Shown: positions 26,576 to 60,831 of the stretch, piece after piece
Layout: every line of letters begins with the position of its first letter
Numbering within the stretch: position 1 is the stretch's first letter
Source: an uncultured delta proteobacterium
GTDB lineage: Bacteria > Desulfobacterota > Binatia > Binatales > Binataceae
Direction: 5' to 3'
Assembly (NCBI GenBank): GCA_963782535.1
Contig: CAWAKE010000009.1
Location: 246,222-310,221 of the forward strand
DNA: 64,000 bases
The notes under the pieces: generated by a model
The model's database searches: none
Seen by the model: the letters and a program-made list of their open reading frames with translations, nothing else
Told to the model about the DNA's origin: nothing
Position numbers and translations under genes: made by a program

Positions 26576-26926
26576 CGCGATGTCCTTTTTTGTCGGTATC
26601 GTTAATAAAATACGTGCGGCGAAGCGAGCAAATCGGCCAGTACCGGAGCCTCGGCGAGATTCGCAAGCCTGCGCCCGTCCGCGCGGCGCCGAGTGGACCC
26701 GCACCATCCGAGGATACCGGACTTCAGGATTACTAGCCCGAATGGAAGTAATGGGCAATAAAGAACGCTCAAGCGGCGGCGGCCGAGGGCGCGAGCGGGC
26801 TCGATCAAGCGCAAAACCGCTAACCCCCGGTCCGCCTCATGCGCTAGAATCAGCACCCCGCGGTTCCATTGAGCCAGTTGCCTTGAGTGTCGGAGCCGCG
26901 ATGCCTTTTCGCGAAAGGAAAACACG

Positions 26927-30520: not shown

Positions 30521-30844
30521 ACGATCTCCTTGCCGACAGCTTGCTGTTCCATCGCACATTAAGGGATCGGAGCGCGTGCGGTCAAAGACCCCGGAAGTCG
30601 CGCGCAGAGTCCCGTCAACCATCGAGATCTATCTGTTGGCAGCCGAAAAGTCACCTGTTCTGGCCGCCGAAATCCTGGCCGCGATCAGCCGGGATTTGCC
30701 GCTGAAATTACAGTGGACGTGTTAGGATCGACTTCGAGCGAATCGCCGCGTGAAATTCCGGCAAGATTTGAGTATCGTGCATCCCGCCTCGAGTAGCGTG
30801 CAAACTTTTTCGATGAGCGCCATTATGGGCGCAGGAGAGCTTCG

Positions 30845-35960: not shown

Positions 35961-37019
35961 TCAGCGCCAGATACCGAAGACACGGAATCCCGTTGATACC
36001 CACGACGTGAAGTGAGCCGTGACCTCCATCGGGCGTGCGCCCATGATGCCCGCAGCAACAATCCAGTTGCGTAACTCATGATCGCCGTTGTTCTCGATAT
36101 CCGGCGAGTCGTAGTCGGCCAACAGGCTCCCTTGTCCGCGTTCGAACCAGTGCATCTTTTCAATATTGCCTTCGAAATCCATGCGCATGCGATCGTATTT
36201 CCTGGTAAGCCATGTGTGCGACCAGGTTGAACTCGGACAAATCATTACGCGCTCTGGTCGTCGCATGAGGACCTGGCGAATTGCCCGGCCCATCGCATAG
36301 AGGCGGTGTGAGGTCGGCGCGGGCGGATACCCGCTGGTCGATTTAGCCTCCAACCCCTGTCCCGACGCCATGGTTCCGAAAATGTTGAGATCGGAGCCAT
36401 AGCAGTTAATCATGATCGGGACGAGCGGGTACTTGCCTCCATCGTTGTGCAGAAAGAGCTGAGTATTGGCGTGTGCGTGGCCCAAGCCGTTTTGCCAGCG
36501 GTCGCTATTCAGATCATTGGAGGAAGCGATGTCGAATTCATTTCTAATCAATTCATCGCGAATAGCCACTGCCAATTCGGAATGACAAGGCCACGAATAG
36601 CGATGATCAGCGGCAACACCCCAGGTGGCCTTGATATATTCCACATCCCCGGGCAGGCGCGACATATTAAACGGCTTTGCGTCCACCTCGTTGCCAACAT
36701 AGATAGCGTAAGGGGGGAGGTTATTGGCCTGGAAGCATTGAGCCTGATCGTCACCGATCATCAGGATCGCGTCCGGGGAGACTTCATCGATGTATTCGCG
36801 CAACCGGTTGAACGCCTGCCAATGCAAATGATGATGCTCCTCGCCCACTTTTGTGGGGTTGTCGCCAAGCTGCGCGACGGCTTCCGGTGGATCCTGGAAC
36901 GGTCGTCCATCCAGCTTTTCCACCATCTTGCAGAGCATCTGGCGCATCCGAAACATGTTTTGCGGCGCGCTCATGAGATAGGGCACGTGAGAAGTCCCGA
37001 TGCCAAAAATTTCTCCCAT
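35961..37019 (-). CDS. class III extradiol ring-cleavage dioxygenase (LigB family)
   Basis: MGEIFGIGTSHVPYL N-terminus and His-rich active-site region (EEHHHLHW.., ..HAHAN..) consistent with LigB/AmnB-type catechol extradiol dioxygenases. 352 aa. Confidence 0.6.
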   Translation of the reverse strand: MGEIFGIGTSHVPYLMSAPQNMFRMRQMLCKMVEKLDGRPFQDPPEAVAQLGDNPTKVGEEHHHLHWQAFNRLREYIDEVSPDAILMIGDDQAQCFQANNLPPYAIYVGNEVDAKPFNMSRLPGDVEYIKATWGVAADHRYSWPCHSELAVAIRDELIRNEFDIASSNDLNSDRWQNGLGHAHANTQLFLHNDGGKYPLVPIMINCYGSDLNIFGTMASGQGLEAKSTSGYPPAPTSHRLYAMGRAIRQVLMRRPERVMICPSSTWSHTWLTRKYDRMRMDFEGNIEKMHWFERGQGSLLADYDSPDIENNGDHELRNWIVAAGIMGARPMEVTAHFTSWVSTGFRVFGIWR

Positions 37020-37033: not shown

Positions 37034-38029
37034 TCAGGTTCGCAGCGCCAGCTTGAGCAGATCCAGCGCGTTAGCGGCGAGGATTTTGTTTTCGGCCTCG
37101 CGCTCGAGACCCAGCGCCTGGATCTCCTGCACTGGATGAGCTACGCCCGCCGGCAGCGGATAATCAGTGCCGACCACGAAACGCTCGGCTCCGTAACAAC
37201 CCACCAGATGGCGCAACATCGGTGGATTGAGCGCGATGGTATCGAACGAGAGTTGTTCGAGGTAACTCGAGGGCAAACGCGGAATTGCGCTGCGGCATTC
37301 AGGTAAAAGTTTGTAGCCCATGTCCAGCCGCCCGATTATGCTCGGCAAGGTGCCGCCGGCATGGTAAAGCACAACCCGCAGCGAAGGATGCCGCTCGAGC
37401 ACTCCACCATAGATCAGCAGCGCCGCCGCGAGGCCAGTATCGAAGAGATTCCCCACTAGATTGCCAAGAAAATAGCGTGCGAACGCGCCGCGCGGTGCGG
37501 CTTCGAACGGATAAACGCACACCGCGATGCCGAGCGCGGCGGCGGCTTCCCAAAATACCTCGAACGCAGGCTCGTCCAGCTGCCGTTCGATCACTCTTGG
37601 TGGTATTTCCACTCCGCGAAATCCCAGCTTGGCAGCGCGTTCGAGCTCCTTGGCAGCCAGCGCGGGATCCTGCATAGGTACTGAAGCCAACGGAACAAAA
37701 CGATCGGGGTTGCTCGCGCCGACAGCCGCCAGCGCCTCGTTGTTCACTTGCGCAATAGCCAGTCCCAGTTCAGGCGCGACTTCGGGATACATCAGGAACG
37801 GCACGCACGATACCGCTTGCACCGTCACTCCTTCGCGATCCATGTCCGCGATACGCGCACGGATATCCGAGATCGGTCCCTCGATCGGCCTCATTGCGGA
37901 TTCTTGGATAACAAAAAAGCGGCGACCGCCACGTTCGATAATTCGTGTCGAGTAGTGTTCACGCTCGCGTGCGAGAAACGCGATCACCTCGGGTGCGACC
38001 ATGTGGTTGTGCATGTCGACTACTTGCAT
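37034..38029 (-). CDS. amidohydrolase-2 family enzyme (ACMSD/LigW/LigJ-like hydrolase or decarboxylase)
   Basis: Trimmed to MQVVDMHNHMV (metal-binding HxH), later HAGG and VVGTDYPLP (metal Asp) motifs of the PF04909 TIM-barrel. The upstream 74 aa of the track ORF are Arg/Gly-rich and implausible. Confidence 0.7.
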   Translation of the reverse strand: MQVVDMHNHMVAPEVIAFLAREREHYSTRIIERGGRRFFVIQESAMRPIEGPISDIRARIADMDREGVTVQAVSCVPFLMYPEVAPELGLAIAQVNNEALAAVGASNPDRFVPLASVPMQDPALAAKELERAAKLGFRGVEIPPRVIERQLDEPAFEVFWEAAAALGIAVCVYPFEAAPRGAFARYFLGNLVGNLFDTGLAAALLIYGGVLERHPSLRVVLYHAGGTLPSIIGRLDMGYKLLPECRSAIPRLPSSYLEQLSFDTIALNPPMLRHLVGCYGAERFVVGTDYPLPAGVAHPVQEIQALGLEREAENKILAANALDLLKLALRT

Positions 38030-38073
38030 GGTTGCTCCCAAGCCAATCGCCCGGCGGATAGTAGTGAGACCCG

Positions 38074-38568
38074 CTATAAGATGATGCTGACCTTGCCGTG
38101 CGGACGCAGCGTCTCTAAATCCAGAACGGCCTTGCGTTCCCGGATCTTCAGCGCGCCCTCGCGCCGCACCAATTTGAATTCGTAATGGCCCACGTATGCG
38201 TCGACCGTTTCGAAGCGCATCCGATAGACGACGAAGTTTGCCGTCACGCAAATATTTTCGCCGTCGGCTCCGAGCACTCGAACATTAGTAATCAGGCGGC
38301 GGGTGCGCGAGTGAGGTGTCTCAGCGTGCGCCGACTTGCCCGTCAATTGCTTCACGCGCGAATGCAGCCGGACCGCATCGTCCGCGATCAGGAACAGTGT
38401 GTCGCTGGGATTGCCGTCAGGGTTGTCCGTCGGCGGCACATAATAGGAAATGTCATCGGTCAACATCCCGAGCCATTCTTCGAGACGCCAGCCGTCCAGC
38501 AGCGCGGCCTCAGCATAAAGTAGCTGCTCAACCTCGGCTGGTGTGGGTAGATCTGCGCTGCTTGTCAT
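38074..38568 (-). CDS. ring-hydroxylating dioxygenase beta subunit
   Basis: LLYAEAALLDGWRLEEWLGMLTDDISYYVP NTF2-like beta-subunit signature. ATG at 38566-38568 overlaps the alpha-subunit stop (ATGA). Confidence 0.8.
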   Translation of the reverse strand: MTSSADLPTPAEVEQLLYAEAALLDGWRLEEWLGMLTDDISYYVPPTDNPDGNPSDTLFLIADDAVRLHSRVKQLTGKSAHAETPHSRTRRLITNVRVLGADGENICVTANFVVYRMRFETVDAYVGHYEFKLVRREGALKIRERKAVLDLETLRPHGKVSIIL

Positions 38569-39851
38569 GCCGCCTTCCGCGCGCGGCGGGCTTGCGGCGC
38601 CGTTATCAGTGTGTGCCATCGGCGCCAGAATGTACGCATCTGCAGCTCGTCGGAGACCCCGGGCTCGTCGCGCTTCATCCCCCGCGAGATGTCAGACCAT
38701 TCGACTTCGGGATTGGCAAATCCGCGCTGGCACGATTCGAGCGCCTCGACGTCGTCAGGCGTTGCAAATCCGCCGGGCCCGAGAAAAGTCAGAAAATTGT
38801 CGAGCCGAAGGGCGAGATCCTCGGGTCTTTCCTTCACTGGAGAAAGCGCCCATGCGTCCACTTCCATGTAATCGGGCGCGATCGGGAAAAACGTGCGGAT
38901 AGTTATCGCCATGATGTCGTTGATGACGAGATTTGGGAAAATCAACAGATTACGACAGGTATGCGCGATCCGCCCCGCGCGCTCGGGGCCGCACCGATCT
39001 TCGAGCGCACGATAGATTTCATCGATGCGTGCCCTGCGCTCTTGGCCGAACAACGGAATCCATTGCGCGATAGGACGACCGAACGGCGCCGAGTACTCGA
39101 TCACGGCATGGCCGTTGCCGAGATCCACGACCTTTTGACGCCACAACATTTCGCCTTTCAGATTGACTCCGCTGTCGGCCAGGAAATTGAAATAGCGCTG
39201 ATGCGTCGGAAGTGCGTGATAGCCGTCGATGCTGTTCTCGGCCAACAGCTTCCAGTTCGCGCGGATGCTGTACGATTGTGTGCCGCCGACAATTTTCATC
39301 CCGGTTTCCGATTGGTCGCAAACCAGATCCAGATACTCTGTAGCGCCGGCAAGATAATCGACCAGCCGCGGCACCGTACGACTGAAGCTCACGAAGATGA
39401 ACCCGCGATAGCTATCGGCCTGTGGCGCAGGAACGAGTCCCAACTCCTCGCGTTTGAATGCCCGCCCGTAGGAATCCTCGCCCGGAATCCCCACCAGATC
39501 GCCGCGTGTATTGAAAGTCCATGCGTGGTACGGGCACTGAAACGTCCGCGCATTACCGCATTTTTCACGGCAGACCATGGCGCCCCGATGGGTGCAGGTG
39601 TTGAGCAACACTCGCACTGTTCCATCGTCGCCGCGCACGATGATCAACGGGCGACCGGCCACCCGCCGCGCCCGATAGTCGCCCGGAAGCGGCACTTCGG
39701 ACTCGTGACCGGCATAAATCCAGCAATTCGCGAATATCCGCTCGCGCTCCATCTCCAGATATTCCGGCCCGACCATGACCCGGCGATTCACGCGAAATAA
39801 TCCTGCTGTCCGATCATCAATGATCAGATTCGATGGCGACGTGCTGTTCAT
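38565..39851 (-). CDS. Rieske aromatic-ring-hydroxylating dioxygenase, alpha subunit
   Basis: Rieske CTHRGAMVC ... CPYHAW plus catalytic domain (DGYHALPTHQ). 428 aa. Confidence 0.85.
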   Translation of the reverse strand: MNSTSPSNLIIDDRTAGLFRVNRRVMVGPEYLEMERERIFANCWIYAGHESEVPLPGDYRARRVAGRPLIIVRGDDGTVRVLLNTCTHRGAMVCREKCGNARTFQCPYHAWTFNTRGDLVGIPGEDSYGRAFKREELGLVPAPQADSYRGFIFVSFSRTVPRLVDYLAGATEYLDLVCDQSETGMKIVGGTQSYSIRANWKLLAENSIDGYHALPTHQRYFNFLADSGVNLKGEMLWRQKVVDLGNGHAVIEYSAPFGRPIAQWIPLFGQERRARIDEIYRALEDRCGPERAGRIAHTCRNLLIFPNLVINDIMAITIRTFFPIAPDYMEVDAWALSPVKERPEDLALRLDNFLTFLGPGGFATPDDVEALESCQRGFANPEVEWSDISRGMKRDEPGVSDELQMRTFWRRWHTLITAPQARRARKAA

Positions 39852-39884
39852 TTTGACGATCCTCCGTGCGAGGTTGGCGGCGCG

Positions 39885-40709
39885 CTATTCACGAGGCTCC
39901 GACGGATCCCAGGCCCAATAACGCGACACCGTTCCCGCGTCGACCCGCAAGTCGGTTCCCGTGATCATTTCTGCGTCGTCGGAGGCGAGAAATACGGCCG
40001 CGCGAGCATAATGCTGCGGACTCGGCAGCTTTTGCATCGGAGTGCGCCTGCGAAATGGTTCGAACATTTCCACGATGCGCTCGGCGTGCGGAACGGCGCG
40101 GCCCCAACGCGCCGCTCGATCCAAGCTTTCCGCCGGGTCTGTGGCCGTTGGCGTGAGGCTGTTGACGCGAATTCCGTGATCCACCAATTCCATCGCAACC
40201 GACCGCGTGAAATTCAGCAGCCCGCTCTTGCCGGTGCAATAGGCGACGTTGCGCGGCTGCCCCTGATGGCCGGCTGTTGAAATGATATTGATGATGCTGC
40301 CTTTGCGCCCCTGCTCGATCATCAGGTGCGCTGCATACTTGGTAAACAGGAATGTGCCGGTCAGTATGATTGCTGTTTGCCGCGTCCATTCTGCGAGCGT
40401 CATATCGAGCACGCCCTTCTGATTGAAGATCGCGGCGCCGTTGATCAGGATATCGACCCCGCCGAATTCGTTGCGCGCCCGGGCGACCGCGGCTTTGACT
40501 TGTTCCTCGTCGGTGACGTCGCAGGTCACGCCGATGGCGCGTCCGCCGGCGTTAACGATCGCTCGCGCACAGTCGGCCGCATTCTCGGCTTTGTAGTCAA
40601 CGCAAACGATTGCGGCTTGCTCGGCCGCCAGTCCTTCGGCGATTCCCCCGCCGATATTTGCGCTCGTTCCAGTGACTATCGCAACCTTACCGTCGAGCTT
40701 CATGGTCAT
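39885..40709 (-). CDS. SDR-family oxidoreductase (cis-dihydrodiol-dehydrogenase-like)
   Basis: GKVAIVTGTSANIGGGIA cofactor motif, NGAA, catalytic YCTGK. 274 aa, immediately upstream of the dioxygenase alpha gene on the same strand. Confidence 0.85.
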   Translation of the reverse strand: MTMKLDGKVAIVTGTSANIGGGIAEGLAAEQAAIVCVDYKAENAADCARAIVNAGGRAIGVTCDVTDEEQVKAAVARARNEFGGVDILINGAAIFNQKGVLDMTLAEWTRQTAIILTGTFLFTKYAAHLMIEQGRKGSIINIISTAGHQGQPRNVAYCTGKSGLLNFTRSVAMELVDHGIRVNSLTPTATDPAESLDRAARWGRAVPHAERIVEMFEPFRRRTPMQKLPSPQHYARAAVFLASDDAEMITGTDLRVDAGTVSRYWAWDPSEPRE

Positions 40710-41108
40710 GCCCCGTCGCTGATATCCTCCGTTTCACTCCGTTGCTCCATCGCGCAACGCCCCATCTACCAGCTATCGCTGGCGCGCGTGGCCGGGAAGG
40801 CAAACCTCGCCCTTTCCGCGAGAGTACGGCTTTTCGCACGAAATCATCAACCCGAACTTTTGCCCGTGCGGTTCGAAATCTTCTTGAGGCTTTTCGGTCT
40901 GAGCGAACTATGGACACGGTTTCCAGGTGATGCTTCGCGTGCCGAAGCATCGAGAGATTCCGATACTGACGCAGAACGATGCGACTCGGCTCTCCGCGCG
41001 ATTTCCATGAGGGCCCGCGCCGGATAAAACGGCGGCAGCACGGCATTCGGCGATTCAGCGCGAGCGCAGGTTCAGTTCACTGGCAATCTGGTCGTGCGAC
41101 TATCGCAC

Positions 41109-42398
41109 TTATGATTCGCCGTTCTGGCTGATCATGCGGTGAAACTGCACGCTCGCCGCGACCGCCGGGAGGAATCGGGTCTTGAACGCCTCGGGCGAAA
41201 GATTGGTCTCTTTCGCGAGCCGCGTGAGCATCGGTTCCTCCAGATCCTCGGCCTCAAGTCGAATCATGTACGAGCGCGCCACCTGATACGATTCCGCCGT
41301 CACGTCAACGCTGCGCGTGCGCACTCGGCCGGTTGCTGGGTCGAGCATCTCGTCGAGTTTGATCGGTTTGATCCGCCCGTTGACGACCGCGATCATTGCG
41401 CCCGAATTACCGCCGAGCAGATAGCGCACCGCACCGTAGCCAAGCGTGCGGGTATAGTCGATGTCGAACGGAAGCGGTCTCGCACAGCGCAACTCATAGC
41501 CGATCTCTTTGTTGACCACAGTCATCTGGATCCCGAGTCCGGCCAACGCCTCACGTACGTTGTCGCGCAGAAATAGCCCGAGCGGAATCTCTCCCAGCCG
41601 TCGATGGCCGTAAGCATCGCGCTCGACGCTTTCTGCCTGCGGCAGCGACGCCGGATCGATGAGTGCGGCAATGCCCTCGGCAATTACTGCCACACCGTCG
41701 GGCCGCCCGTTGGCCCAGCGCTTGATAATTGCGCCCGCGATCAAATCGACCACGGTCGTGAGTTCAAGCTTCGAATCCAGAAACTCCTCGGGGATCAGCG
41801 CCAGGGTCGCGCCCGCAGCCTTGCACATGCCAAGCGCAAGGGCGCCGGAAGTACGCCCCATTGTAACCACCGTGTACCAGCGCCCCGTGGTCAGCGCATC
41901 CTCCATCAAGGACTCGACCACCGTGGTGCCAAACGAACGCGCCGTCTCGAAGCCGAAAGTTGGCAGGTTCTCGGGCAAAGGCAGGTCGTTATCGATAGTT
42001 TTCGGCACCGTGACTATGCTCAGCTTGTGCCCGGCGCGCTCCGCGATCTTGGCCGCGGCAGTTGTCGTGTCGTCACCCCCGATACACACCAGGTAACGGA
42101 CCGAAAGCTCTTCCAGCGACCGCACCGCGCGCTCGAGACTCGCCTCCTCTCGCGCCGGATTGGTGCGCGAGGTTCCGAGAATCGAGCCGCCGGTGAAATG
42201 AATTCGGCTCACATCGGAGATTTTAAGCTCGACCGCGCGCGACGTGTCACCGCGCGCCAGCCAGTGGTACCCTTGTGGAATTCCGATTACCCGCAGCCCC
42301 GAGTTGATTGCCTCGATAGTCGCCGCTGCAATCACTGCGTTGATCCCGGGGGCGGGTCCACCGCCTACCAAGATCGCCAATGTCTGCTTCTGTGGCAT
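41109..42398 (-). CDS. pfp: 6-phosphofructokinase, pyrophosphate-dependent type
   Basis: LAILVGGGPAPGINAVI, GGDDT (Asp where ATP-PFKs have Gly) and PKTIDND (Lys where ATP-PFKs have Gly), MGR substrate motif. Start trimmed to MPQKQTL. Confidence 0.75.
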   Translation of the reverse strand: MPQKQTLAILVGGGPAPGINAVIAAATIEAINSGLRVIGIPQGYHWLARGDTSRAVELKISDVSRIHFTGGSILGTSRTNPAREEASLERAVRSLEELSVRYLVCIGGDDTTTAAAKIAERAGHKLSIVTVPKTIDNDLPLPENLPTFGFETARSFGTTVVESLMEDALTTGRWYTVVTMGRTSGALALGMCKAAGATLALIPEEFLDSKLELTTVVDLIAGAIIKRWANGRPDGVAVIAEGIAALIDPASLPQAESVERDAYGHRRLGEIPLGLFLRDNVREALAGLGIQMTVVNKEIGYELRCARPLPFDIDYTRTLGYGAVRYLLGGNSGAMIAVVNGRIKPIKLDEMLDPATGRVRTRSVDVTAESYQVARSYMIRLEAEDLEEPMLTRLAKETNLSPEAFKTRFLPAVAASVQFHRMISQNGES

Positions 42399-42952
42399 GA
42401 TTATAGACCTTGTACCCACCCGCCTCCTGACGGCCTTTCAGCGCCAGGTTGTGATTGTTGTTCTGGCGCAATAGTTCGAGATCGCTGGCGAAGAAATTGC
42501 GAAAGTGAATCGGAGCGCGTCTCTTCGCCGGCGAATCCCACAATCGAGCAACCGATGCCGTGTTGGCTTTTCGCGTCCCCTATAAGAATTATCCCTCGGA
42601 CCGGCGCCAGTCGAATGCCCTTCATTCTGCTGATGCGATTATCCCCCTGTTCGCGCCCCGCACGTCCGTCGCAGTTACTGGGGTTCCGCAGCCTGCCGAC
42701 CGGCGCCAGCGCACCGGCTGTGACCGATCCATGAGTTACCATTGCCATCGCCGAAGCCGCCGATTGCTCACACATCACCTGATAAGCAATTTTTGCTCCC
42801 GTGCGGTCCCTCGCACTGCTTACTCTCATAAGAGGTGGCTATTCGAAATTCACGCAGTAGGGTCAACGCAGGCCTTGCGCAGTTCCGGATTGTTGTAATA
42901 GATGAGCTATCGACAGATTAGTAATTGAGACGACGCTTCATAAGGAGAAATC

Positions 42953-43330
42953 ATGGCTGCCAATTGCGAAAAAGTTGTTAGCGATCTGTTCGCGGCGTGG
43001 ACCCGTCTGAACGTCGATGACGTCATGACATATTTCACCGAGGATGCCGTATGGGACAATGTCCCCATGGGCCCGGCCAAAGGGCAGGCCGCCATCCGTG
43101 AGATGACGCATGGTTTCATGAAGGATGCGAGCACGTTCAGCGCCAAGATCCTCAAGACCGCTCATGTCGACAACGTGGTCTTCAACGAGCGTGTGGACAC
43201 GATCGTTATGAAGAACGGCAAGAAGGCCGATATTCCGGTCGCTGGAATGTTCGAGCTGAATGACGCCGGCAAAATTAAAGTCTGGCGCGACTATTTCGAC
43301 CTCGGGACTTTCACCAAGCAGGTTTCCTAG
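42953..43330 (+). CDS. limonene-1,2-epoxide hydrolase family protein (LimA-like, NTF2 fold)
   Basis: 125 aa; ends ...KVWRDYFDLGTF. The WRDYFDL heptapeptide is identical to the Rhodococcus LimA active-site segment. NERVD (catalytic Arg/Asp) and DNVPM (Asn) are also present. Strong AAGGAGA RBS. Confidence 0.8.
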   Translation: MAANCEKVVSDLFAAWTRLNVDDVMTYFTEDAVWDNVPMGPAKGQAAIREMTHGFMKDASTFSAKILKTAHVDNVVFNERVDTIVMKNGKKADIPVAGMFELNDAGKIKVWRDYFDLGTFTKQVS

Positions 43331-43478
43331 GTGCGTAGTTACAGGCGGCGCGCCTGACCGCCATCTTGCTCAATCACTTGCCCTTGCCGCGCGCATTCCC
43401 ACGGTAGATGCGTACGCGTATCGATTGGTATTCCTCGTTCGGAAGTTGGCGCCGTGATACTCACGAGAAACCTGAGAG

Positions 43479-44707
43479 ATGAATCGAACTCAAGCAGAAA
43501 ACGAAAAGAGGCCGCCGGCTGATGAAGCGCGTCTGGCCGGCCGGCTTCTGATCGAGCGGGCAATAGGACTCGCTGCGGGATTGCGCGAAAGATCCGACGA
43601 AGGCACCCGCCTTCGCCGCCTGCCCGATGGAAGCTGGAATGCGTTGCTCGATTCGGGCGTGCTACGAGGGCTGCAACCGTCCCGCTGGGGCGGGGGGAAA
43701 CAAATCTCCGCGACTTTTTTACCGCGGTTTCGGAGGTCGCAAGAGCCGACGGTTCCGCCGGTTGGGTGGCCGGAATTGTCGGCGTGCATCCATGGCAACT
43801 CGCATTTTTCCCAATCGAAACCCAACAGGAAGTTTGGGGCGGCGATCCGACCGTGATGCACTCCTCGTCCTATGCCCCTACCGGGCGAGCGGAAAAGGTC
43901 AGCGGTGGATATCGGCTGAATGGGCGCTGGTCCTTTTCGACCGGTTGCGATCACTGCCAATGGGTCAATCTCGGCGCGGTCACCGGCCCAATCGAAATCG
44001 ACGGAACCCCGGTCCAGGATTTTCGCTCGTTTATGCTGCCGCGTCGCGATTATAAAATCGACGACAACTGGCGCGTCGCCGGACTCTGCGGCACCGGCAG
44101 CAAGGATATCGTGGTAGAAAATGCGTTCGTGCCTGCACACCGCAGCCAATCGCATTGGGACTACATGCTGGGACGCGAAATGCCGGGATGGGAGTTCAAT
44201 CCGGCGCCGCTCTATCGCTTGCCGTTCGCGGCAGTTTTCAATTACGCGCTGTCCGCCTCCGTCCTCGGCGCCACGCGCGGATTCCTCGATGCCTGGATTG
44301 AGAGCACCCGGCCCCGCAAACTGGGTCTCGGCGGAATAGCCAGTGAAGATCCCTTCATCCAGAAGCTCCTCTCCGAAGCCGATTACGCGATTGACGCGGG
44401 CATGCTCAAGCTCCGCCGCGACTGCGACGAGTTGATGGACGCGGGCCGCGCGAGCGTCAGCCTCTCCCTGCAACGCCGCGCGGCAATTCGCTACAACGCC
44501 TGCCGCTCGGCGCAATTGGCCGCTCGCGCAATCGACCGCCTGTTTGAGTCGAGTACCGGCAAAGCGATTTTCCTCGATCATCCGCTGCAGCGGCGCTACC
44601 AGGATATCAAGGCGATGCTCGGCCACGCTTACCTCACTGCCGACAGTCCTGCGCGCATGCACGGCGCCATCGCGCTTGGCCAACCGGTAGTCAATCCGAT
44701 GCTGTGA
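43479..44707 (+). pseudogene. ACAD-fold flavin-dependent monooxygenase (HsaA/DszC/HpaH-like), frameshifted
   Basis: N-terminal 70 aa (frame of 43479) read ..LPDGSWNALLDSGVLRGLQPSRWGGG. The continuation ETNLRDFFTAVSEVARADGSAGWVAGIVGVHPWQLAFF... to the C-terminus is in the +1 frame (track ORF 43766..44707). The break falls in the G6 run at about 43692-43697. One extra G would restore a single ~410-aa ORF. Confidence 0.6.
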
Positions 44708-45120
44708 GCGACCTCCGTTTGCGATCGCAAAGGCCGTGCGGCGTCTCCTCATAAGGTACGGCCAATAAGTGACGGCACACTCCGGACAGTGTCGATTTAC
44801 GCCCGTTCACCTTACCGAACCTGTGCTGCGGCCAAATCGGACCCCTTTGATTATCTCGCTGGCCGCCGTTTTTCGCAATCCGACGCTGGTCATTAGGGCG
44901 GCGCCTGCTCCTCGATGCGGCATCTGTCCGCCGATCCGCGCCTCCCTCTCCAAACCAGTCGCGGGTTCGCTGCGTCACCGGTAATCTTAGCGGAATTATG
45001 ATGACCGACTGGCTACGCTCGGAGCATCAGGGTAATCGTTGCACTGGCGGCCGTCGGGTTACTATTCGCAGTTAGGCCCAGGGCTGTGGCATCTCGCGCC
45101 CAGGCTGACGAGCTCGAAGA

Positions 45121-46743
45121 ATGAAGCGGGAAAGTGGAATGAATATCGGTGACGCGAACGCGGTGATTGCCGCTAACTTGAGTGGGCGCGGGCGTTTGAG
45201 TCGCGTAGCCGTGCCGCGTTGTCGGCGTTTACTCAGATCCATCGCGGTCACGGCAATACTTGTAATCGCATTAGTTGAACCCGTAAAAGTCCACGCGGCA
45301 ATCGACCTGTTAACTATCGCCGGTCAACCGGTAGTGCTGAGCGCAACCGAACAAAACCGCGAACAGGTCTGGAACTGGTTCCCTGCCACCGACCCGGCGC
45401 AGGGGCCGGATTACCAGAACCGCTATAACTTCATGGGTAGCTGGATTCGGGTCGGCCTCGGTTACCAACTCGACGGTATCAAAGCCTTCGCCGAACTGAT
45501 GAGCCCATTTCTTATAAACCTGCCGGACGATGCGATTGTCGCTCCGCCGCCGGGTAAGGTCGGACCGCAAGGGCTGCTAGGTCTCGGCGCCAACTACTAT
45601 CAACCGCATCAGAATCCGAACGACGCCAGCGTCTTTCTCAAGCAGGCCTACCTCGAATTCGGACGCAACCTGATGCCCGGCTTCAATTTCAAGGGCGGCC
45701 GCTTCGAATTATTCGACGGGCTCGAATACCTGCCTGCGGAACTCAACCCGCAGCTCAGGTGGCTGGCCACCAACCGCATCGCACAGCGGCTGATCGGTAA
45801 TTTCGGCTTCAGTGACATCATGCGATCGTTTGACGGTGCGGTCGCAACCTACGGTAACGATACGTGGCAGGCGACCGTTATGTACGGTGTCCCGACCAAG
45901 GGCGTGTTCGACCTCAACGCCATGGAAGAGGTGCGCAATATGGACGTGGCCTATGCGTCGCTCAACGCTGGGCCGAGCGCTTTTCAATCCGATCTGTGGG
46001 GCGATTCTATCGGCCGGTTCTTCTATATCTATTACAACGACAGTCGCGGGCTGGCGCTGGTGGATAATCGCAGCCTGAGCGCAACGGCGGCTACGGGACC
46101 CGTCTCGATTGACACGGTGGGCGCGGATTACGCTCGCACGCTGACCGTGGGTCCGGGCAGCGCAGACTTTCTATTGTGGGGCGCAGGACAGTTCGGGTCC
46201 TGGGGTGCGCTCAGCCAGCGCGCCTACGCGATGGTGGCTGAGACCGGATATCGGTTTACCCATGCGCCCTGGAAGCCATGGCTACGCCTTGGTTACACCA
46301 TCGGTTCAGGCGACGGTAACAACCATGACTCGACCCACGCCACCTTCTTTCAGATTCTTCCCACCGCCCGGATTTACGCGATGACACCGATTTACAATAT
46401 GATGAATATCAACGACGCTATGGCGCAGTTGATGCTCGACCCGCTCACGAATCTCCAGATCCAAAGTGCGCTCCATGGATTGTGGCTCGACGCCAAAAAG
46501 GATCGCTGGTACGCGGGCGGAGGCGCTTTCGACAACCGAATCTTTGGTTATGCTGCGCGGCCCAGCAATGGTTACGGCTATCTCGGCACCCTGGCGGATT
46601 GTCAGATGACGTGGAAGGCTAACTCGCACTTTGCGTTGCAGCTTTACTACGGTCACGTCTTTGGTGGCAGTGTAGTCGGCAGTATCTATCCCGCGGGCCG
46701 CGAGTCTGACTACGGCTTTATTCAGACAACGTGGTCCCTCTAG
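45121..46743 (+). CDS. putative outer-membrane beta-barrel protein (alginate-export/DUF1302-like)
   Basis: N-terminal signal-like hydrophobic segment (LLRSIAVTAILVIALVEPVKVHAA), Gly/Tyr/Asn-rich alternating amphipathic strands throughout, aromatic C-terminal residue (..TTWSL). Family assignment is by general resemblance only. Confidence 0.45.
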   Translation: MKRESGMNIGDANAVIAANLSGRGRLSRVAVPRCRRLLRSIAVTAILVIALVEPVKVHAAIDLLTIAGQPVVLSATEQNREQVWNWFPATDPAQGPDYQNRYNFMGSWIRVGLGYQLDGIKAFAELMSPFLINLPDDAIVAPPPGKVGPQGLLGLGANYYQPHQNPNDASVFLKQAYLEFGRNLMPGFNFKGGRFELFDGLEYLPAELNPQLRWLATNRIAQRLIGNFGFSDIMRSFDGAVATYGNDTWQATVMYGVPTKGVFDLNAMEEVRNMDVAYASLNAGPSAFQSDLWGDSIGRFFYIYYNDSRGLALVDNRSLSATAATGPVSIDTVGADYARTLTVGPGSADFLLWGAGQFGSWGALSQRAYAMVAETGYRFTHAPWKPWLRLGYTIGSGDGNNHDSTHATFFQILPTARIYAMTPIYNMMNINDAMAQLMLDPLTNLQIQSALHGLWLDAKKDRWYAGGGAFDNRIFGYAARPSNGYGYLGTLADCQMTWKANSHFALQLYYGHVFGGSVVGSIYPAGRESDYGFIQTTWSL

Positions 46744-46914
46744 CAAGGCGATGAACGCGGTTCCGAGTAGTATGAACGATCGCCTCACTCTGTATCATGG
46801 TTCGATGTGCGAATGGGCTGATGATGGCTGGACACCGGCTCAAGTGAAGTCCGAGTGCGAATTTGAGCATGAATAATCAGCGACCATGCAAGTCGTCTGC
46901 GAGATGGATTAATT

Positions 46915-47523
46915 ATGGCCAAACATAAGCATGGCGAACACGGCGGCGACGATCGGCATGGCGCACGGCAACCCGAGCGGTTCGATCCTGCCCGCGCGGC
47001 GCTGCTCGACGATCCTGCGCGCTTCGAATATTTGCCGCCGGACGAAGTATTCGCGCTGTCGGCAGCGCCGGCCGGTGGCCGCGTTGTGGATTTCGGCACC
47101 GGAACGGGAGCCTATGCAATCGAGCTTGCCAAGCGGCGGCCCGACCTTGAGGTGATTGCGCTCGACGAACAGGCGCAGATGCTCGATCTGCTGCGGGCGA
47201 AGCCAGCGGCGATAAAGCTCGCAAATCTCAGTCCGGTTCACACTGCCGAAATCGCGCGGCTGCGCGGCACCGCCGATCGGGTGCTCGCGCTCAACGTATT
47301 GCACGAGGTCGGCGATGAGGCCTTGCTTGCGCTGGCGGCTCTGCTCAAGCCCGATGGCGCGGCGCTCATCGCTGACTGGAACGCCGGCGTCGAGCGCGCG
47401 GTGGGTCCGCCGCCAGACCATGTATACACGGTCGCGGAAGCCTGTGAGCGGATCCAGCGCGCCGGCCCCCGCATCGAGAGCGAGCACATGTTGAAATATC
47501 ATTACGCACTGATCGCGCGTTAG
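46915..47523 (+). CDS. class I SAM-dependent methyltransferase (small, His-rich N-terminus)
   Basis: Motif I VVDFGTGTGAYAIELA, acidic post-I residue (ALDE), motif II/III region. N-terminus MAKHKHGEHGGDDRHG. No conserved Cys triad, so not a canonical ArsM. Confidence 0.7.
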   Translation: MAKHKHGEHGGDDRHGARQPERFDPARAALLDDPARFEYLPPDEVFALSAAPAGGRVVDFGTGTGAYAIELAKRRPDLEVIALDEQAQMLDLLRAKPAAIKLANLSPVHTAEIARLRGTADRVLALNVLHEVGDEALLALAALLKPDGAALIADWNAGVERAVGPPPDHVYTVAEACERIQRAGPRIESEHMLKYHYALIAR

Positions 47524-47681
47524 CAGTTTCAACGTTGGCCCGACCGCGGGGGACCCGGAGCGGCTCGAAGCGATGGCGATGAGCCATCGTGCGCGGAGAG
47601 GCCGGCGAAATGCCCTTCCCCGCGCAGAATCGTCGGGCTCGCCCGGGCCGGCCCGAAGCGGAAAATGCGACTGATTCCCGA

Positions 47682-48212
47682 TCAGCAGCATGCTCCCGGT
47701 TTGCGCGGTTGCGCGGTATCGTGTGAGGCCGCGGGCACGCAGCAGGGCGCGTCTGAGGCTTCGGCGGCGGAGCTTTTACGATTGTGAAGCGGGATGCAAC
47801 AAGGCTCACCGTCAGAGCGCCTCATGCTCGTATCGTTGCCAAAGATTGGCACTTCGCCGAGAGTCTGAAAGTTCTCCCAAGCAAGGCCCTGCGGGTCGAG
47901 CACCCAATATTTGTTTCCCTTGGCGTAGCAACATTCGACCTCGGTCTCTTTTAAAGCCGCGGCCCCGCTCGCCTGCTCGGCGCGCATACTCAGTTCCGCG
48001 AGTTCCGCCGAATCCTCGGCCTGAAATCCCAAGTGATTGAGGCCGGGTTGGTGACCGCGCGCTGAAATCGCAAAATTTATGCGCGGCTCCTCCAGCATCC
48101 ACTTGGCATAATCGGCTCGCACAACCGTCGGCTGGATGCCGAACAAATCGGTATAGAACTTGATACTTACTTCCAGATTTTCCACTGCAACGTGAACATG
48201 AAAGCGTTTCAT
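47682..48212 (-). CDS. ArsI/CadI-family VOC (glyoxalase-fold) metalloenzyme
   Basis: Glyoxalase-like betaalphabetabetabeta start (MKRFHVHVAVENLEVSIKFYTDLFG), vicinal cysteine pair ..ETEVECCYAKG.. at about residues 94-95, and a C-terminal tail with three more Cys pairs (EPCCIPLH, APCCVPAAS, GACC). Confidence 0.6.
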   Translation of the reverse strand: MKRFHVHVAVENLEVSIKFYTDLFGIQPTVVRADYAKWMLEEPRINFAISARGHQPGLNHLGFQAEDSAELAELSMRAEQASGAAALKETEVECCYAKGNKYWVLDPQGLAWENFQTLGEVPIFGNDTSMRRSDGEPCCIPLHNRKSSAAEASDAPCCVPAASHDTAQPRKPGACC

Positions 48213-48593
48213 AGAGGCCTCCTCATTCTTGTTTAAAGAAATCTTGCGACAGGCTCGCCGGATGCCGCCGATTGCTTAACTCGCTCGAGCTTCAAGCTTG
48301 ACTGACGCTACTTATAATTCTATAAATATAAAACTATAGAGATGTCAAGCGGGCGACCTGCAGCCGTCGCCGAAATCCGCGGCCGACGCTCAACCTGGGA
48401 CCTCTCAATACCGAAGTGTAGGGAATCCAGGCGTGGACAGTTCGTTTAGTGGTCCCACTTTGCGAGGTAAGCGAGTTTTCGTGAATCAGAGGTTAACGCA
48501 GCGTTACGTCTTGGTTTGTTTTCGGTTGAATCACGCGAACGCAAGCCTTCGAAGATTGATTTCATCAAGGCATAACTCTAGACAGGTAGAACT

Positions 48594-48974
48594 ATGAGGA
48601 AATCGAATGTCATCTCGGGGTTGAGTGCCTTAGCTCAGGAAACCCGTCTCGATATCTTCCGGCTGCTGGTGACGAGAGGGCCCGAGGGACTGCCGGCGGG
48701 TGAAATCGGCATGCGTCTTGGACAGCCCTCGCCCACGCTTTCGTTTCATTTGAATCAGCTCAGGTTCGCTGGGCTCGTGACTTCACGCCGTGAGAGCCGC
48801 TCAATTCTTTACAGCGCAAACTTCAAGGCGATGAACGATTTACTCGCTTATCTGACGGAAAACTGCTGTGGTGGACGCTCGGACTTGTGCGCTCTCGATG
48901 CGTCCGCAACTCGCGAATCAATTCCGGCCTCGATAAAAGCCACGCGTGGCAATAGGACCGACGGTAAAAAATAG
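48594..48974 (+). CDS. arsR: ArsR/SmtB-family metalloregulator
   Basis: LAQETRLDIFRLLV...EIGMRLGQPSPTLSFHLNQLRFAGLV winged-HTH core plus C-terminal Cys cluster ENCCGGRSDLC (type-2 As(III)-binding site arrangement). Divergent from the VOC gene, upstream of acr3. Confidence 0.8.
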   Translation: MRKSNVISGLSALAQETRLDIFRLLVTRGPEGLPAGEIGMRLGQPSPTLSFHLNQLRFAGLVTSRRESRSILYSANFKAMNDLLAYLTENCCGGRSDLCALDASATRESIPASIKATRGNRTDGKK

Positions 48975-49230
48975 GAGAGGGCTCAATGGCCCGTCGCGAA
49001 TTAAACTACCGGTATCGACGATGCAAAGCGCAAATTCTTTTCCCGCATCTATTCGGAACTGGAGAATCGCATAAAAATCATTGCCAGCTTGCCGATCGAT
49101 GCCCTCGACCGCCAGAAGCTGGAGAATCATGCACGCGAGATTGGCAAGGTGAAGCTTCCGAGTAAGGAAGAACGTTGAACACGCCCGTTCGCGATTTGAT
49201 AATGTCCCAACCCGCACCCAGGAGAATACC

Positions 49231-50370
49231 ATGAGCGCGATTCCGGCGAAGCCGGATACTCACATCATGAGGCGGTTGTCGTTTCTCGACCGCTACCTGA
49301 CGCTTTGGATATTTTTTGCGATGGCGCTGGGAGTCGCGATGGGAAATATCCGGCCCGGCGTGAAAGGAGCATTCGATCGACTGACTATCGGAACGACATC
49401 CGTACCGATTGCGATCGGGCTGATCTTGATGATGTATCCGCCGCTGGCAAAAGTAAATTACGACGAACTCGGCGACGTGTTTCGGAACTGGAAGATTCTG
49501 GGCCTATCGCTGGTGCAGAACTGGATCATCGGTCCCGTCCTGATGTTCGCGCTCGCAGTGATCTTTCTGCGCGACCGCCCCGAGTACATGATCGGTCTCA
49601 TCATGATCGGTATCGCGCGCTGTATCGCGATGGTGATCGTGTGGAACGACCTGGCCGATGGCGACGCCGAATATTGCGCCGGATTGGTGGCCTTCAACTC
49701 AATTTTTCAAGTGCTCTTCTATTCGGTCTATGCCTTTGTCCTGATTACTGTTGTCCCGCGGTGGTTCGGGCTTGCCGGTTCGGTCGTGCACATCACGATC
49801 GGTCAAATTGCCGAAAGCGTGGCGATCTACCTCGGGATGCCTTTTGTAGCGGGATTCGCTACATGGAAGGTGCTTACCCATCGCAAGGGTAAGCTCTGGT
49901 ATCGAGAACATTTTATTCCGAAGGTGAGTCCGCTCACCTTGATTTTTCTTCTATTCACTATTGCTGTGATGTTTTCGATCAAGGGTGCTGCGATCCTTCA
50001 ACTGCCGCTCGACGTTGTACGAATCGCGGTACCGTTGCTGCTCTATTTCGCGATCATGTTCGGCGTCTCTTTCATACTGAGCATGAAGGCGGGCGCGACT
50101 TATCCGCAGACGGCTACGCTCTCATTCACTGCCGCATCCAATAATTTTGAACTCGCGATCGCGGTCGCGGTGGCGACCTTCGGCATCGACAGTGGGGCCG
50201 CCTTCGCCGCTGTCATAGGGCCATTGATCGAAGTTCCGGTAATGATCGGATTAGTTGACGTAGCGCTGTGGGCGCGGCGCAGATATTTCGCCGATTCGAC
50301 GGCCACGATCTCCGCGGCGGAATGTTGCAACACGGCGGTCGAAAGCGCCCGCCGCAACCGGCGGATATGA
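49231..50370 (+). CDS. acr3: ACR3-family arsenite efflux permease
   Basis: [21 protein letters not shown] hallmark, conserved TM4 cysteine in [17 protein letters not shown], 10 TM helices, 379 aa. Confidence 0.9.
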
Positions 50371-50728: not shown

Positions 50729-50759
50729 GCGATGACGATCAAGGGATAGCCGGCGTTAG

Positions 50760-51932
50760 GGAGCCTCTGCACAGGTCGTCATACAGCGGCAGTTCGACAT
50801 AGTAATGAGGATTATGAGGAGGAACGGCAGCAGCGCGCTGGGGTGATCGCTGCTGAGAAGCCATCAGGAGCATTGGTTGCCTCTGGTTCTTGTTCACAAC
50901 CCACACCAGGCCCCGGCTGGGAGCAACCGATGCCGGAGTTGGTAGAGATTGGCCAGCGCGAACATGGTTTCGGCCCGAGCCAGATTCTTGGCCAGCCCGC
51001 GATATCTAACCTTGCTGAAGCCCCACAACTGCTTGAGTACGCGGAAGGCATGCTCGCCGCAAGCGCGGGTGCGCGAACGCACCCGGTTGATCATCCGCCA
51101 GCGCTTGCTCAACGGCCGCTGCGCGGTAGGACGGCGATTGATCCGATAATGTATTCCCCGCGATTCAAGGAAGCTGCGGTCATCTTCCTTCCAATACGCC
51201 TGGTCGCCGAACACCTCGCGCTCGTACCCGTGCAAAAGCTCCGGCAGTTGGGTGACATCGGCGACCGCGGCGTCGGTCGCGGTTACGCTGTGCACGATGC
51301 CACGCTGGTCAGCCCCGATGTGCAGTTTCATCCCGAAGTGCCAGTTCTGGCCCTTACGAGTCTGCTTCATCTCGGGGTCGCGCGTCCCACTGGCGTTCTT
51401 GGTGGAACTCGGCGCCGCGATGATGGTCGCGTCCACAATCGTCCCCGAGCGCAGCAACAGGCCGCGGGTCTCGAGCAGACCGCCGATCGCGGCGAAGATT
51501 GCCTTGGTCAAATTGTGCTTCTCGAGCAGATGACGAAAACGCAGAATCGTGGTCTCATCCGGCACCGTGTCCTCGCCCAGCTCCACCTTGGCAAACCGAC
51601 GCATCGACTCACTGTCGTAGATCGCGTCCTCGGCCTGCGGGTCGGAGAGATTGAACCATTGTTGCAGGAAGTAGATGCGCAGCATCTTCTCCAGCCCCAG
51701 TGGCTGGCGCCCGTTGCCGGCTTTGGGGTAATGAGGCTCGATCAGGCGCAAAAGCCGCGCCCACGGAATCACCGCATCCATCTCGCCCAGGAATCGCTCG
51801 CGCCGGGTAACTTTGCCTTTCCCATTCCATGCCATCGATGCGAACGTCCGCTGATTCCCCATCACCGCACCTCCACTCCTGCCGCTCCCACTTATGATTT
51901 ATACCAAACCGAAACACTTGTGCAGAGGTTCC
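50760..51932 (-). mobile_element. IS5-family insertion sequence (IS5 group), intact, with 4-bp TTAG target-site duplication
   Basis: Imperfect terminal inverted repeats GGAGCCTCTGCACAGGTCGT (left, from ~50760) and GGAACCTCTGCACAAGTGTT (right, reverse complement, ending ~51932), 16 of 20 identical. Flanked by TTAG at 50756-50759 and 51933-51936. Encloses one transposase ORF. Confidence 0.8.
50894..51865 (-). CDS. IS5-family DDE transposase
   Basis: 323 aa with the IS5 signature KQTRKGQNWHFGMKLHIGADQRGIVHSVTATDAAVADVTQ...GDQAYW (DDE triad region). Confidence 0.9.
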   Translation of the reverse strand: MMGNQRTFASMAWNGKGKVTRRERFLGEMDAVIPWARLLRLIEPHYPKAGNGRQPLGLEKMLRIYFLQQWFNLSDPQAEDAIYDSESMRRFAKVELGEDTVPDETTILRFRHLLEKHNLTKAIFAAIGGLLETRGLLLRSGTIVDATIIAAPSSTKNASGTRDPEMKQTRKGQNWHFGMKLHIGADQRGIVHSVTATDAAVADVTQLPELLHGYEREVFGDQAYWKEDDRSFLESRGIHYRINRRPTAQRPLSKRWRMINRVRSRTRACGEHAFRVLKQLWGFSKVRYRGLAKNLARAETMFALANLYQLRHRLLPAGAWCGL

Positions 51933-51943
51933 TTAGTGATTGA

Positions 51944-53506
51944 CTAGGAGTCCGTCCGAGAAATTTCGCCGGTTAAGTTGATCTCCGGATTGGAGCGATT
52001 GGCTATTGATGATGCCGGTCGCCCCAGGATCCTGCGAAGCGCCGGCTGGTCGGCTGGCGACTACAAAGAGGTGCGCGTTTTGCTGCGGTATTTCTCGTGA
52101 CCGCCTGGATGACGGTTACGCATTGCAGAGCCGGTGCAACTTCAAAATGTTGTGGGTGAGACAGACCAGCGCCCACTCGCCCCGGACTTTAGCCAAGCCG
52201 CGCAAAAGAAAGCGGCGAAACCCGCGGGCCTCTTTGATCTGGCCGAAGACCGGCTCCACGATCGTTTTCCGTGTCACATAGATTGCCCGCCCCACCTTAG
52301 TCTGAAGCTTGCGTTTCATGCGGTCGACCCGCGTCGCATTGCGCGGTAACGGTCCGCGCGAGCAGGGCTGGCGGTATTCGTCATGCTTCTGCTTGCCAGT
52401 CGCGATATAGCAATCGATCGGGTCTCCAGACTGACCGAGAGCCGCCAGATACGCGAGGTTCTTCTCCGAGCAATAGCCACTGTCGGCCACGAGGCCGGTG
52501 GGTCGCTGTCCGCTCTGTTGCTCGATCACCTGGACCATCGGTTCGATTTGCTGTTTATCGTTGGCTGCCGGCGTCACGCTCTGCCCCACGATTAACTGCA
52601 ACACCGGCTCCACTGCCGCCTGCGCATTGTAGCCTTGCACCAGACCGTCGCTGCCCTGCATCAGGCGCGACTCCGGGTCGGTGAAATTGTATTGATCTTT
52701 GTCCGCGGGCTTCGCCGATTGCACTTCTGCGCGCGGCTTTCCGGCCTTCTCCGCCGACTGCCGCGCCCGCTCTTCCAGCGCCCGTTGCGCCGCGCGAATC
52801 TTCCTTAGCCGGCTCTCGCGCCGCTGCAACTCTGCGGGTAGCTCGTCGCCCCGCCGATCGGCCCCGTAGTGCGCGTCTTCGGCGGCGTCCACCGCCTCGG
52901 CCTGGGCCAGCAGTTCCCGGACCTCTGCGCGCAGTTGCCGTTGCCGCTCCTGCATCCGGCCATAGCTCATCGCTTTGTGCTTGCTGGCGTTGGCTTTCAG
53001 CTTGGTGCCGTCCAACGCCACCCGCCCCAGTTTCAGCGCTCCCGCTTCCAGCGCGATCTTCAGCACCTCTTCAAACAGCCCGGCCAGCGTCGCCAGATGG
53101 AGCTTGCGAAAATCTGCGATGGTACGGAAGTTCGGCGCGTTGCCCGCCGCCAGCACGCGAAACCCCACGTCCTCGATTAAACGCCGCTCGATGCGCCGCG
53201 AGCTAAATACCCCCACGCAATACCCATACACCAGCACCTTGGTCATCATCCGCGGATCGTAGGGCGGCTGCCCGCGTTGCTCGTCCCCATACGCCGCATC
53301 CAGCGCCGATAGGTTCAGATTGTCGACCACATCGCTGACGAAGTAGACCAGATGATTCTCGGGCAACCATTCACGCAGGCTCGGGGGAAGCAGAAACTCT
53401 TGATCCGGATGGTACGGTCGGTAGCTCTTACCCATGCCTAATTATCTACTACTCACACCCCGTTTTCTTCCTCAGTCAAATAACTATTTCTCGGACACGC
53501 TCCTAG
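51944..53506 (-). mobile_element. IS1182-family insertion sequence
   Basis: 21-bp imperfect IRs CTAGGAGTCCGTCCGAGAAAT (51944-51964) and CTAGGAGCGTGTCCGAGAAAT (reverse complement of 53486-53506), 18 of 21 identical. Encloses one 439-aa transposase gene. Begins 7 bp from the IS5 right-hand TSD. Confidence 0.7.
52116..53435 (-). CDS. IS1182-family transposase
   Basis: MGKSYRPYHPDQEFLLPPSLREWLPENHLVYFVSD N-terminus characteristic of IS1182-family transposases. Coiled-coil middle and C-terminal DDE domain (DSGYCSEKNL). Confidence 0.85.
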   Translation of the reverse strand: MGKSYRPYHPDQEFLLPPSLREWLPENHLVYFVSDVVDNLNLSALDAAYGDEQRGQPPYDPRMMTKVLVYGYCVGVFSSRRIERRLIEDVGFRVLAAGNAPNFRTIADFRKLHLATLAGLFEEVLKIALEAGALKLGRVALDGTKLKANASKHKAMSYGRMQERQRQLRAEVRELLAQAEAVDAAEDAHYGADRRGDELPAELQRRESRLRKIRAAQRALEERARQSAEKAGKPRAEVQSAKPADKDQYNFTDPESRLMQGSDGLVQGYNAQAAVEPVLQLIVGQSVTPAANDKQQIEPMVQVIEQQSGQRPTGLVADSGYCSEKNLAYLAALGQSGDPIDCYIATGKQKHDEYRQPCSRGPLPRNATRVDRMKRKLQTKVGRAIYVTRKTIVEPVFGQIKEARGFRRFLLRGLAKVRGEWALVCLTHNILKLHRLCNA

Positions 53507-54713: not shown

Positions 54714-54798
54714 AGTAGCCTCCTCGGGGGCAGAATTTTCCACGAAAGTTGACCGCACTCGCCACCGACAAATCTCTCAGGTTTTTATCGTCGCCATA

Positions 54799-60528: not shown

Positions 60529-60831
60529 ATGGACAGCTTCGGCTCGCACTCCTTCCAGTGGGTAAACGCCGCGGGCGAAGCGGTCCCGGTGAAATACCAT
60601 TTCAAGTTCGAACAGGGGATCGCAACTCCGCCCGCCGGGGAGGCCGCGCGACTGGCCGGCGCGCTTTATCGATTGATGAACGAGGCCGAAAAACAGCGGC
60701 TGACCGCAAATACTGAGGACCGTCTTGGGCGGGTGAGCAAGGACGAGATAGTTGAGCGGCCGATCATGAATTTCCGCAAGGCCGATCCCGATTATGGTGA
60801 AAGTGTGGGGACGGCGGTGGCGGCGAAGTGA
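60529..60831 (+). pseudogene. catalase remnant (5' half missing, internal in-frame deletion)
   Basis: FGSHSFQWVNAAGEAVPVKYHFKFEQGI matches the catalase core segment (FGSHTFK.VN..G.....KFH.K..QG). ..ALYRLMNEAEKQRLTANT...IMNFRKADPDYGESV matches the catalase C-terminal helical region. These normally lie ~200 aa apart but are contiguous here. Nothing catalase-like lies upstream of 60529. Confidence 0.65.

Follow-up and report, generated by a model that had tools for sequence, protein, structure and literature searches.

The window, by which we mean the whole stretch of 64,000 nucleotides analysed here, belongs to an uncultured soil bacterium of the Binataceae and contains a gene for an HsaA-like flavin monooxygenase whose reading frame is broken by the absence of a single base at a tract of six G residues. 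The gene is otherwise intact, none of its relatives has such a lesion at this site, and the lesion is present in two assemblies. We infer that the six-G allele is true DNA rather than a read-level error, and we see about an even chance that it is a very young null allele, i.e. a pseudogene with a single lesion and not a regulated feature, which may still be polymorphic in the population. The case is one of an ordinary young null allele or of an assembly error, and it involves no new mechanism.

The broken reading frame and its repaired product

The sequence at the lesion is ...CCGTCCCGCTGGGGC GGGGGG AAACAA..., where the six G residues occupy positions 43692-43697 (+) and positions 43680-43701 read TCC CGC TGG GGC GGG GGG AAA C; one base is absent here relative to every in-frame orthologue. 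From translation and the corresponding tblastn piece, the 5' part of the gene (43479-43697, +) comprises codons 1-73 in frame 0 (MNRT...PSRWGGG). The ORF starting at ATG 43479 has a length of 125 aa and reads MNRT...LQPSRWGGG followed by 52 out-of-frame codons (43698-43856, +; KQISATFL...AAIRP*) with a stop at 43854-43856. This out-of-frame tail is without homology, no Pfam match to it was present in the Logan gene call of the 125-aa ORF, and when the 125-aa frameshift product was used as a homology query for the same allele elsewhere, zero matches were obtained. The ATG start and the MNRT N-terminus are common to the proteins of L023, P0001, L001, L005 and L006. The 3' part (43697-44707, +) comprises codons 74-409 and the TGA stop in the -1 frame (ETNLRDFF...VVNPML*), a frame which stays open from a point before 43628 until the stop at 44705-44707 and which from 43697 translates as ETNLRDFFTAVSEVARADGSAGW... 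and encodes ETNLRDFFTAVSEVARADGSAGWVAGIVGVHPW....

The initial annotation had described a conserved segment split between two frames at the six G residues around 43692-43697, and both the ORF translations and tblastn agree with this: with the repaired protein as query, two pieces were obtained in different frames, covering residues 1-74 (145 bits) and 71-409 (696 bits). Insertion of one base at the tract gives a protein of 409 aa, close to the approximately 410 aa that had been predicted for the addition of one G, and this protein aligns to the HsaA structure 2rfq with no gap across the junction. The public records hold only the 307-aa C-terminal ORF (P0004; 43784-44707, +, with a GTG start), located on a contig of 528,431 bp from NCBI/ENA.

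In the repaired protein, residues 257-386 match the Pfam family Acyl-CoA_dh_2 (PF08028, E 8.7e-20), and the best NCBIfam model is HsaA (NF045629) with 363.3 bits over residues 31-408. Since the equivalog cut-off of 450 bits is not reached, the protein is not established as an HsaA equivalog, nor is its substrate. Over approximately 380 residues it matches the structures 2rfq (E 5e-84, residues 25-408 to 13-393), 2or0 (E 1.5e-74) and 3afe (E 5e-72), with weaker matches to the C2 oxygenase 2jbr (E 1e-45) and to XiaF (E 1e-35), and the scores for other NCBIfam models are far below their cut-offs (HpaH 203 versus 650 bits, SfnB 33 versus 431, DszC 18 versus 850). Homologues numbered 2,202 matches, of which the best 120 are 58-80% identical to the query, except for the 100% identical fragment P0004, and the named homologues among these best 120 come from Candidatus Binataceae MAGs. 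Judged by sequence, the repaired product is an HsaA-like group D flavin monooxygenase of the ACAD fold, presumably the oxygenase component of a two-component system. The HsaA-like part of the original "HsaA/DszC-like" designation is thus retained at the level of 363 bits, below the cut-off; by the same profile scores the DszC-like label is unwarranted beyond the shared fold, the relationship being remote only.

The gene has its own upstream region, as was proposed initially, consisting of 148 nt of intergenic sequence (43331-43478, +) between the stop codon at 43330 of a LEH/SnoaL-fold gene and ATG 43479. The LEH/SnoaL-fold protein (42953-43330, +; 125 aa; Pfam LEH E 1.4e-18) is syntenic in the closest relative L023 and 96.8% identical to its counterpart there at the amino-acid level. 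The outer-membrane protein gene said to follow the oxygenase is also present; it encodes an Alginate_exp protein of 540 aa (45121-46743, +; Pfam Alginate_exp E 8.9e-29) and is likewise syntenic in L023. Upstream, on the opposite strand, are genes for a Rieske dioxygenase, an SDR, a weakly matching LigB-type protein, an amidohydrolase and an MMPL transporter, and the only meta-cleavage candidates near the gene are the weakly matching LigB-type and amidohydrolase genes on that other strand. No Flavin_Reduct match was found among the scanned ORFs of the window, and the flavin reductase could be encoded elsewhere in the genome.

By analogy, an oxygenase of the HsaA type would take reduced flavin from a separate reductase and ortho-hydroxylate a phenolic ring to a catechol, which would then undergo extradiol (meta) cleavage, a reaction proposed here from homology and from the gene context of relatives. 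The orthologues L001 and L003 (73-74% identity) sit in hsa/bph-like meta-cleavage operons, where the neighbouring genes include an SDR, a BphC/HsaC-type extradiol dioxygenase, an HsaD-like alpha/beta hydrolase, a hydratase of the FAA-hydrolase fold, an acetaldehyde dehydrogenase and a DmpG-like aldolase, and Rieske oxygenase subunits lie next to the gene in several orthologous loci. The operons of the orthologues support, by analogy, a putative role in phenolic ring hydroxylation before extradiol cleavage.

The window as a whole is unusually dense in luciferase-like (Bac_luciferase) monooxygenase genes, with at least nine in 64 kb (3503-4399, 10456-12795, 25247-27889, 29447-31726, 53595-54758 and 61045-62091); it also contains two alpha/beta pairs of Rieske oxygenase genes and three genes each for acyl-CoA dehydrogenases and enoyl-CoA hydratases. 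A single RNA gene was found, a tRNA-Leu (anticodon TAA; 10187-10273, +) situated in a gap of 746 nt between protein-coding genes.

The site and the gene in relatives

A comparison with orthologues, which had been proposed as a check, gave a uniform picture. Each of the 45 orthologous loci with coverage of the site is in frame at this point and encodes W-G-G-(G/A/L/V/F)-E; their G runs are interrupted, e.g. GGC GGC GGC GAR, and none of the 45 has a run of six or more G residues at the site. Therefore the G tract is not conserved. Closest to the window is L023 (JGI metagenome 3300081965), which is 91% identical at the nucleotide level and syntenic over 21 kb; no other known sequence exceeds 81% identity to the gene. 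At the site L023 is in frame and reads GGC GGA GGG GAG, and alignment of the two (GGCGG-GGGGAA in the window versus GGCGGAGGGGAG in L023) shows that exactly one base is absent from the window. Because L023 has an A at the missing position, an ancestral homopolymer of seven G residues need not have existed; instead of a seventh G, it may be the wobble base of the middle glycine codon that was lost. Repair by one base stands, and the assumption that the missing base was a G is not required.

A protein-guided scan of metagenome contigs produced 31 loci, none above 81% identity and none with more than one reading frame when checked by tblastn. When metagenome contigs were scanned for the exact pattern of the site with six to eight bases in the tract, nothing was returned, and no contig encoding P0004 or the porin was found by exact matching.

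L023 carries a lesion of its own in the same gene, a one-base insertion of a T outside any repeat, located 89 nt upstream (L023 position ~9961, equal to window position 43605; L023:9950-9975 reads GGC T ACA CCC versus GGC ACC CGC in the window), because of which the L023 gene is called as only 354 aa. These two lesions are the only coding indels in the 21-kb alignment with a length not divisible by three, and two events in the same 1.2-kb gene amount to a coincidence of about 6% under either random errors or random mutations. A frameshift of its own, caused by another lesion, in the L023 copy fits a dispensable gene, and the coincidence slightly favours dispensability; the low dN/dS, however, argues against long-standing relaxed selection.

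With respect to the remainder of the gene, 116 homologues define 128 columns with a conservation of at least 95%, and of these the repaired protein retains 127; the one exception, L110F, is common to L023. The dN/dS ratio versus L023 is 0.114 (22 non-synonymous and 54 synonymous differences), which is mid-range compared with the 0.03-0.32 of 16 neighbouring genes, and neither a second indel nor a premature stop in the correct frame was found in the repaired gene. Since the gene has been under purifying selection for essentially the whole divergence and has no second lesion, the frameshift must be very recent, if real. Hallmarks of a pseudogene beyond the single lesion, such as more lesions or relaxed selection, are absent, and the further disabling mutations that the initial annotation had named as confirmation of a pseudogene did not turn up in the gene.

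Some simpler readings of the lesion could be rejected. A two-base insertion instead of a one-base deletion is excluded by the L023 alignment and by the residue spacing in homologues, and a functional split gene giving two polypeptides is excluded by the position of the first start in the downstream frame (GTG 43766), which falls after the conserved ARADGSAGW. A templated mutation at a quasi-palindrome was considered, as the G tract can pair with TCTCCGC (43705-43711) ahead of the six T residues, but was rejected because the loss of an A from an L023-like GGA lowers the complementarity of the arms. The same pairing, followed by GAC TTTTTT, gives an intrinsic-terminator-like hairpin with a T6 run at the frameshift site (43690-43721, +); its stem is weak, with seven pairs of which two are G-U, and the T run encodes Phe-Phe.

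Null allele, assembly error or regulated feature

On the null-allele reading, one nucleotide would have been lost within the Gly-Gly-Gly-Glu codons, converting an ancestral GGC GGN GGG GAA into the GGC GGG GGG AA of the window. Translation from ATG 43479 would leave the frame after residue 73 and stop at 43856, the 336 downstream codons lack a start before the conserved ARADGSAGW segment, and full-length enzyme would be made in at most trace amounts via spontaneous slippage. Gene decay and mobile DNA are also seen elsewhere in the window, in the form of a catalase relic (60529-60828) and a pair of IS elements missing from L023 (50757-53506).

As regards these elements, the 100-aa ORF at 60529-60828 (+) matches positions 185-229 of 383 of the Catalase profile joined to a Catalase-rel domain, and it looks like a real gene relic, left over from a catalase gene that has lost an internal part. 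The two IS elements are adjacent, and in L023 they are replaced by 6 nt in place of 2,742 nt; their DDE transposase genes lie at 50897-51865 and 52119-53435 (both -), and their imperfect terminal inverted repeats of 20-21 nt at 50757-50776 with 51916-51935 and at 51944-51964 with 53486-53506.

The most serious competitor is an artefact of assembly or basecalling, to which we assign somewhat less than an even chance. The gene would then be intact and encode 409 aa with either GGC GGG GGG GAA or GGC GGN GGG GAA at the site, long-read basecalling or consensus would have dropped one base, and the k-mer assembly of the same reads would repeat this systematic error. Dropping one base from a G tract that lies beside another G run is a classic error, and a single lesion without relaxed selection in a gene that is otherwise flawless (dN/dS 0.11, 127/128 columns) is what an artefact would look like; moreover, two independent and very recent inactivations of a gene under purifying selection would be an unlikely coincidence. 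Frameshifts among the orthologues are confined to long-read MFD MAG loci (one frame change in L010, three in L021 and two in L022), L023 and the window, and there is none in the remaining loci, including those with contig names pointing to short-read assemblies. Many of the genome-derived relatives are long-read MFD MAGs, and the MFD-LR MAGs are Nanopore-only Flye assemblies that received one round of Medaka polishing (PMC12313526). Bins below 40-fold coverage are said to be possibly still in need of polishing (PMC9262707). The source of the window is probably also a Nanopore-only, Medaka-polished MAG, judging by the 528-kb contig, its ENA/NCBI source and its relatives in the MFD long-read catalogue; that a Nanopore origin is only probable speaks against an artefact.

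Several other observations also oppose an artefact. In a search with a self-trained codon model and Pfam scans, no other split gene was found among the approximately 55 genes of the window, so that the lesion is the only frameshift in about 56 kb of coding sequence. The window contains no G or C run of seven or more; two other G6 tracts within genes (25718-25723 and 36712-36717) leave their ORFs intact, and a C6 tract at 1542 lies between genes. The Logan k-mer assembly of run ERR11571143 covers positions 37270-49448 of the window (12.2 kb) with two contigs that show one substitution, no gaps and the same six G residues, an agreement that would also be compatible with a systematic basecalling error in GGGGCGGGGGG if ERR11571143 represents the Nanopore reads behind the MAG. 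Since most homopolymers below 11 bp are reported to come out correctly in R10.4 Nanopore consensus sequences (PMC9262707), a consensus error from seven to six G residues in a clean region would be unusual. Furthermore, the errors in the poor MFD MAGs are random indels outside homopolymers, and errors of that kind would strike the six G residues by chance with a probability below 1%. Three findings narrow the decision between a genuine recent pseudogene and an error of sequencing, namely the lack of further lesions in the gene, the lack of any other frameshift in the window and the six G residues in an independent assembly.

The poor quality of these MAGs is apparent at L021:6001-7227 and L022:6001-7127, which have 29-39 gap positions versus L001 over 5-6.6 kb, all of them single-base indels outside homopolymers. 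The L021 and L022 MAGs are error-rich and their gene calls are not to be trusted. In the window, the frame of an RNase II/R-like gene (5260-7230) stays open for 111 more codons directly past its stop (4924-5256, -), and coding potential is mildly positive over the 51 codons that precede the first start; this extension may represent either a small gene of its own or a tail cut off by a nonsense mutation.

The pair of lesions in the window and L023 may be read in another way, namely that separate and very recent events inactivated the same conserved oxygenase in both known members of this Binataceae clade (by -1 at 43694 in the window and by +1 located 89 nt upstream in L023), reflecting recurrent adaptive loss, or reversible on/off switching, of a flavin oxygenase that became uncoupled once out of its meta-cleavage operon. 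We regard this as improbable, the alternative being two coincidental events or two errors.

Phase variation, in which replication slippage in the G tract would toggle the oxygenase on and off within a population, is in our judgement very improbable, and the slippage-prone switch suggested in the initial annotation does not fare well in the comparison. It is true that the frameshift lies exactly in the G tract, that one added G restores the full gene, and that both known clade members carry alleles in the off state. However, the tracts of known contingency loci are typically at least eight residues long, so that six or seven G residues fall short, and the tract is not conserved, since none of the 45 loci, all in frame, has six or more G residues at the site and L023 reads GGA GGG G. 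Nor is the L023 lesion part of the same switch, because its inserted T is outside any repeat. Variants in tract length were not found in the sequence records and contigs searched.

Least credible of all, and to our minds close to negligible, is a programmed -1 ribosomal frameshift, or transcriptional slippage, at the G tract that would yield full-length enzyme from the split gene. The required shift is indeed -1, and a slip on GGG GGG or GGG AAA would give exactly the canonical WGGGE. A slippery heptamer X XXY YYZ is nevertheless absent from frame 0, where the codons are GGC GGG GGG AAA and G GGA AAC is in the wrong frame, and six G residues are too short for efficient slippage of RNA polymerase. 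A proximal hairpin can be drawn from 6-7 nt after the tract (-11.3 kcal/mol), but it is not significant (z -1.5), with 16 of 200 shuffled sequences folding as well. The strong hairpin at 43745-43783 (+), within the coding region, has -27.4 kcal/mol and z -3.9, with none of 200 shuffles as stable, but it is 47 nt downstream and coincides in part with the conserved ADGSAGWVAGIVG codons; orthologues, which need no shift, retain only 64% of its pairs, versus 32-44% in slid controls. From the sequence comparison this hairpin is probably a by-product of the conserved codons. Since there is no heptamer and no significant hairpin at frameshifting distance, and since all 45 orthologues are in frame, a programmed recoding or a switch is unlikely; in addition the shift is not conserved, as L023 shifts in the opposite direction and elsewhere in the gene. 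Even jointly, the switch and recoding readings remain a small minority possibility. In the stem of the strong hairpin, L023 has three changes, all from C to U and opposite a G.

Should the lesion be an artefact, then an intact HsaA-like ring hydroxylase is under-annotated in the public record, where it is called as a fragment of 307 aa, and the case illustrates the residual indels of long-read MAGs. If it is real, a catabolic gene has been caught at the moment of its inactivation in an uncultured soil lineage, which would be of modest interest for the turnover of aromatic and steroid degradation genes in Binatota. The significance beyond annotation is small in both cases.

Comparison with known systems

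Like the contingency loci of Neisseria, Campylobacter and Haemophilus, which are switched on or off by the length of a G tract, the oxygenase gene has its tract in the 5' part of the coding region. Unlike them, it has a tract that is short and unconserved, with no length polymorphism seen, and it encodes a catabolic enzyme and not a surface or restriction-modification function.

With the frameshift errors of Nanopore-only MAGs (PMC9262707, PMC12313526) the lesion shares the one-base indel in a G-rich tract and the probable origin in a long-read MAG, and MFD loci have one to three frame changes in the same gene. The differences are that the rest of the window is clean, that the tract has only 6-7 nt and that the Logan assembly agrees.

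With regard to the enzyme, the nearest characterized system is HsaA of HsaAB, the 3-hydroxy-9,10-secoandrosta-1,3,5(10)-triene-9,17-dione 4-hydroxylase of Rhodococcus jostii RHA1 and Mycobacterium tuberculosis (2rfq, 3afe/3aff), with which the repaired protein shares a full-length alignment and the C-terminal Acyl-CoA_dh_2 domain. In contrast to HsaA, the window gene scores below the equivalog cut-off, is broken in its reading frame and is located outside a meta-cleavage operon, between the LEH/SnoaL and porin genes, and no HsaB-type flavin reductase gene accompanies it among the ORFs scanned in the 64-kb window. The score of the protein is far under the family cut-offs of HpaH, DszC and SfnB. 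With the C2 oxygenase of p-hydroxyphenylacetate 3-hydroxylase (Acinetobacter baumannii, 2jbr), XiaF, DszC and SfnB it has in common the ACAD fold and the two-component logic.
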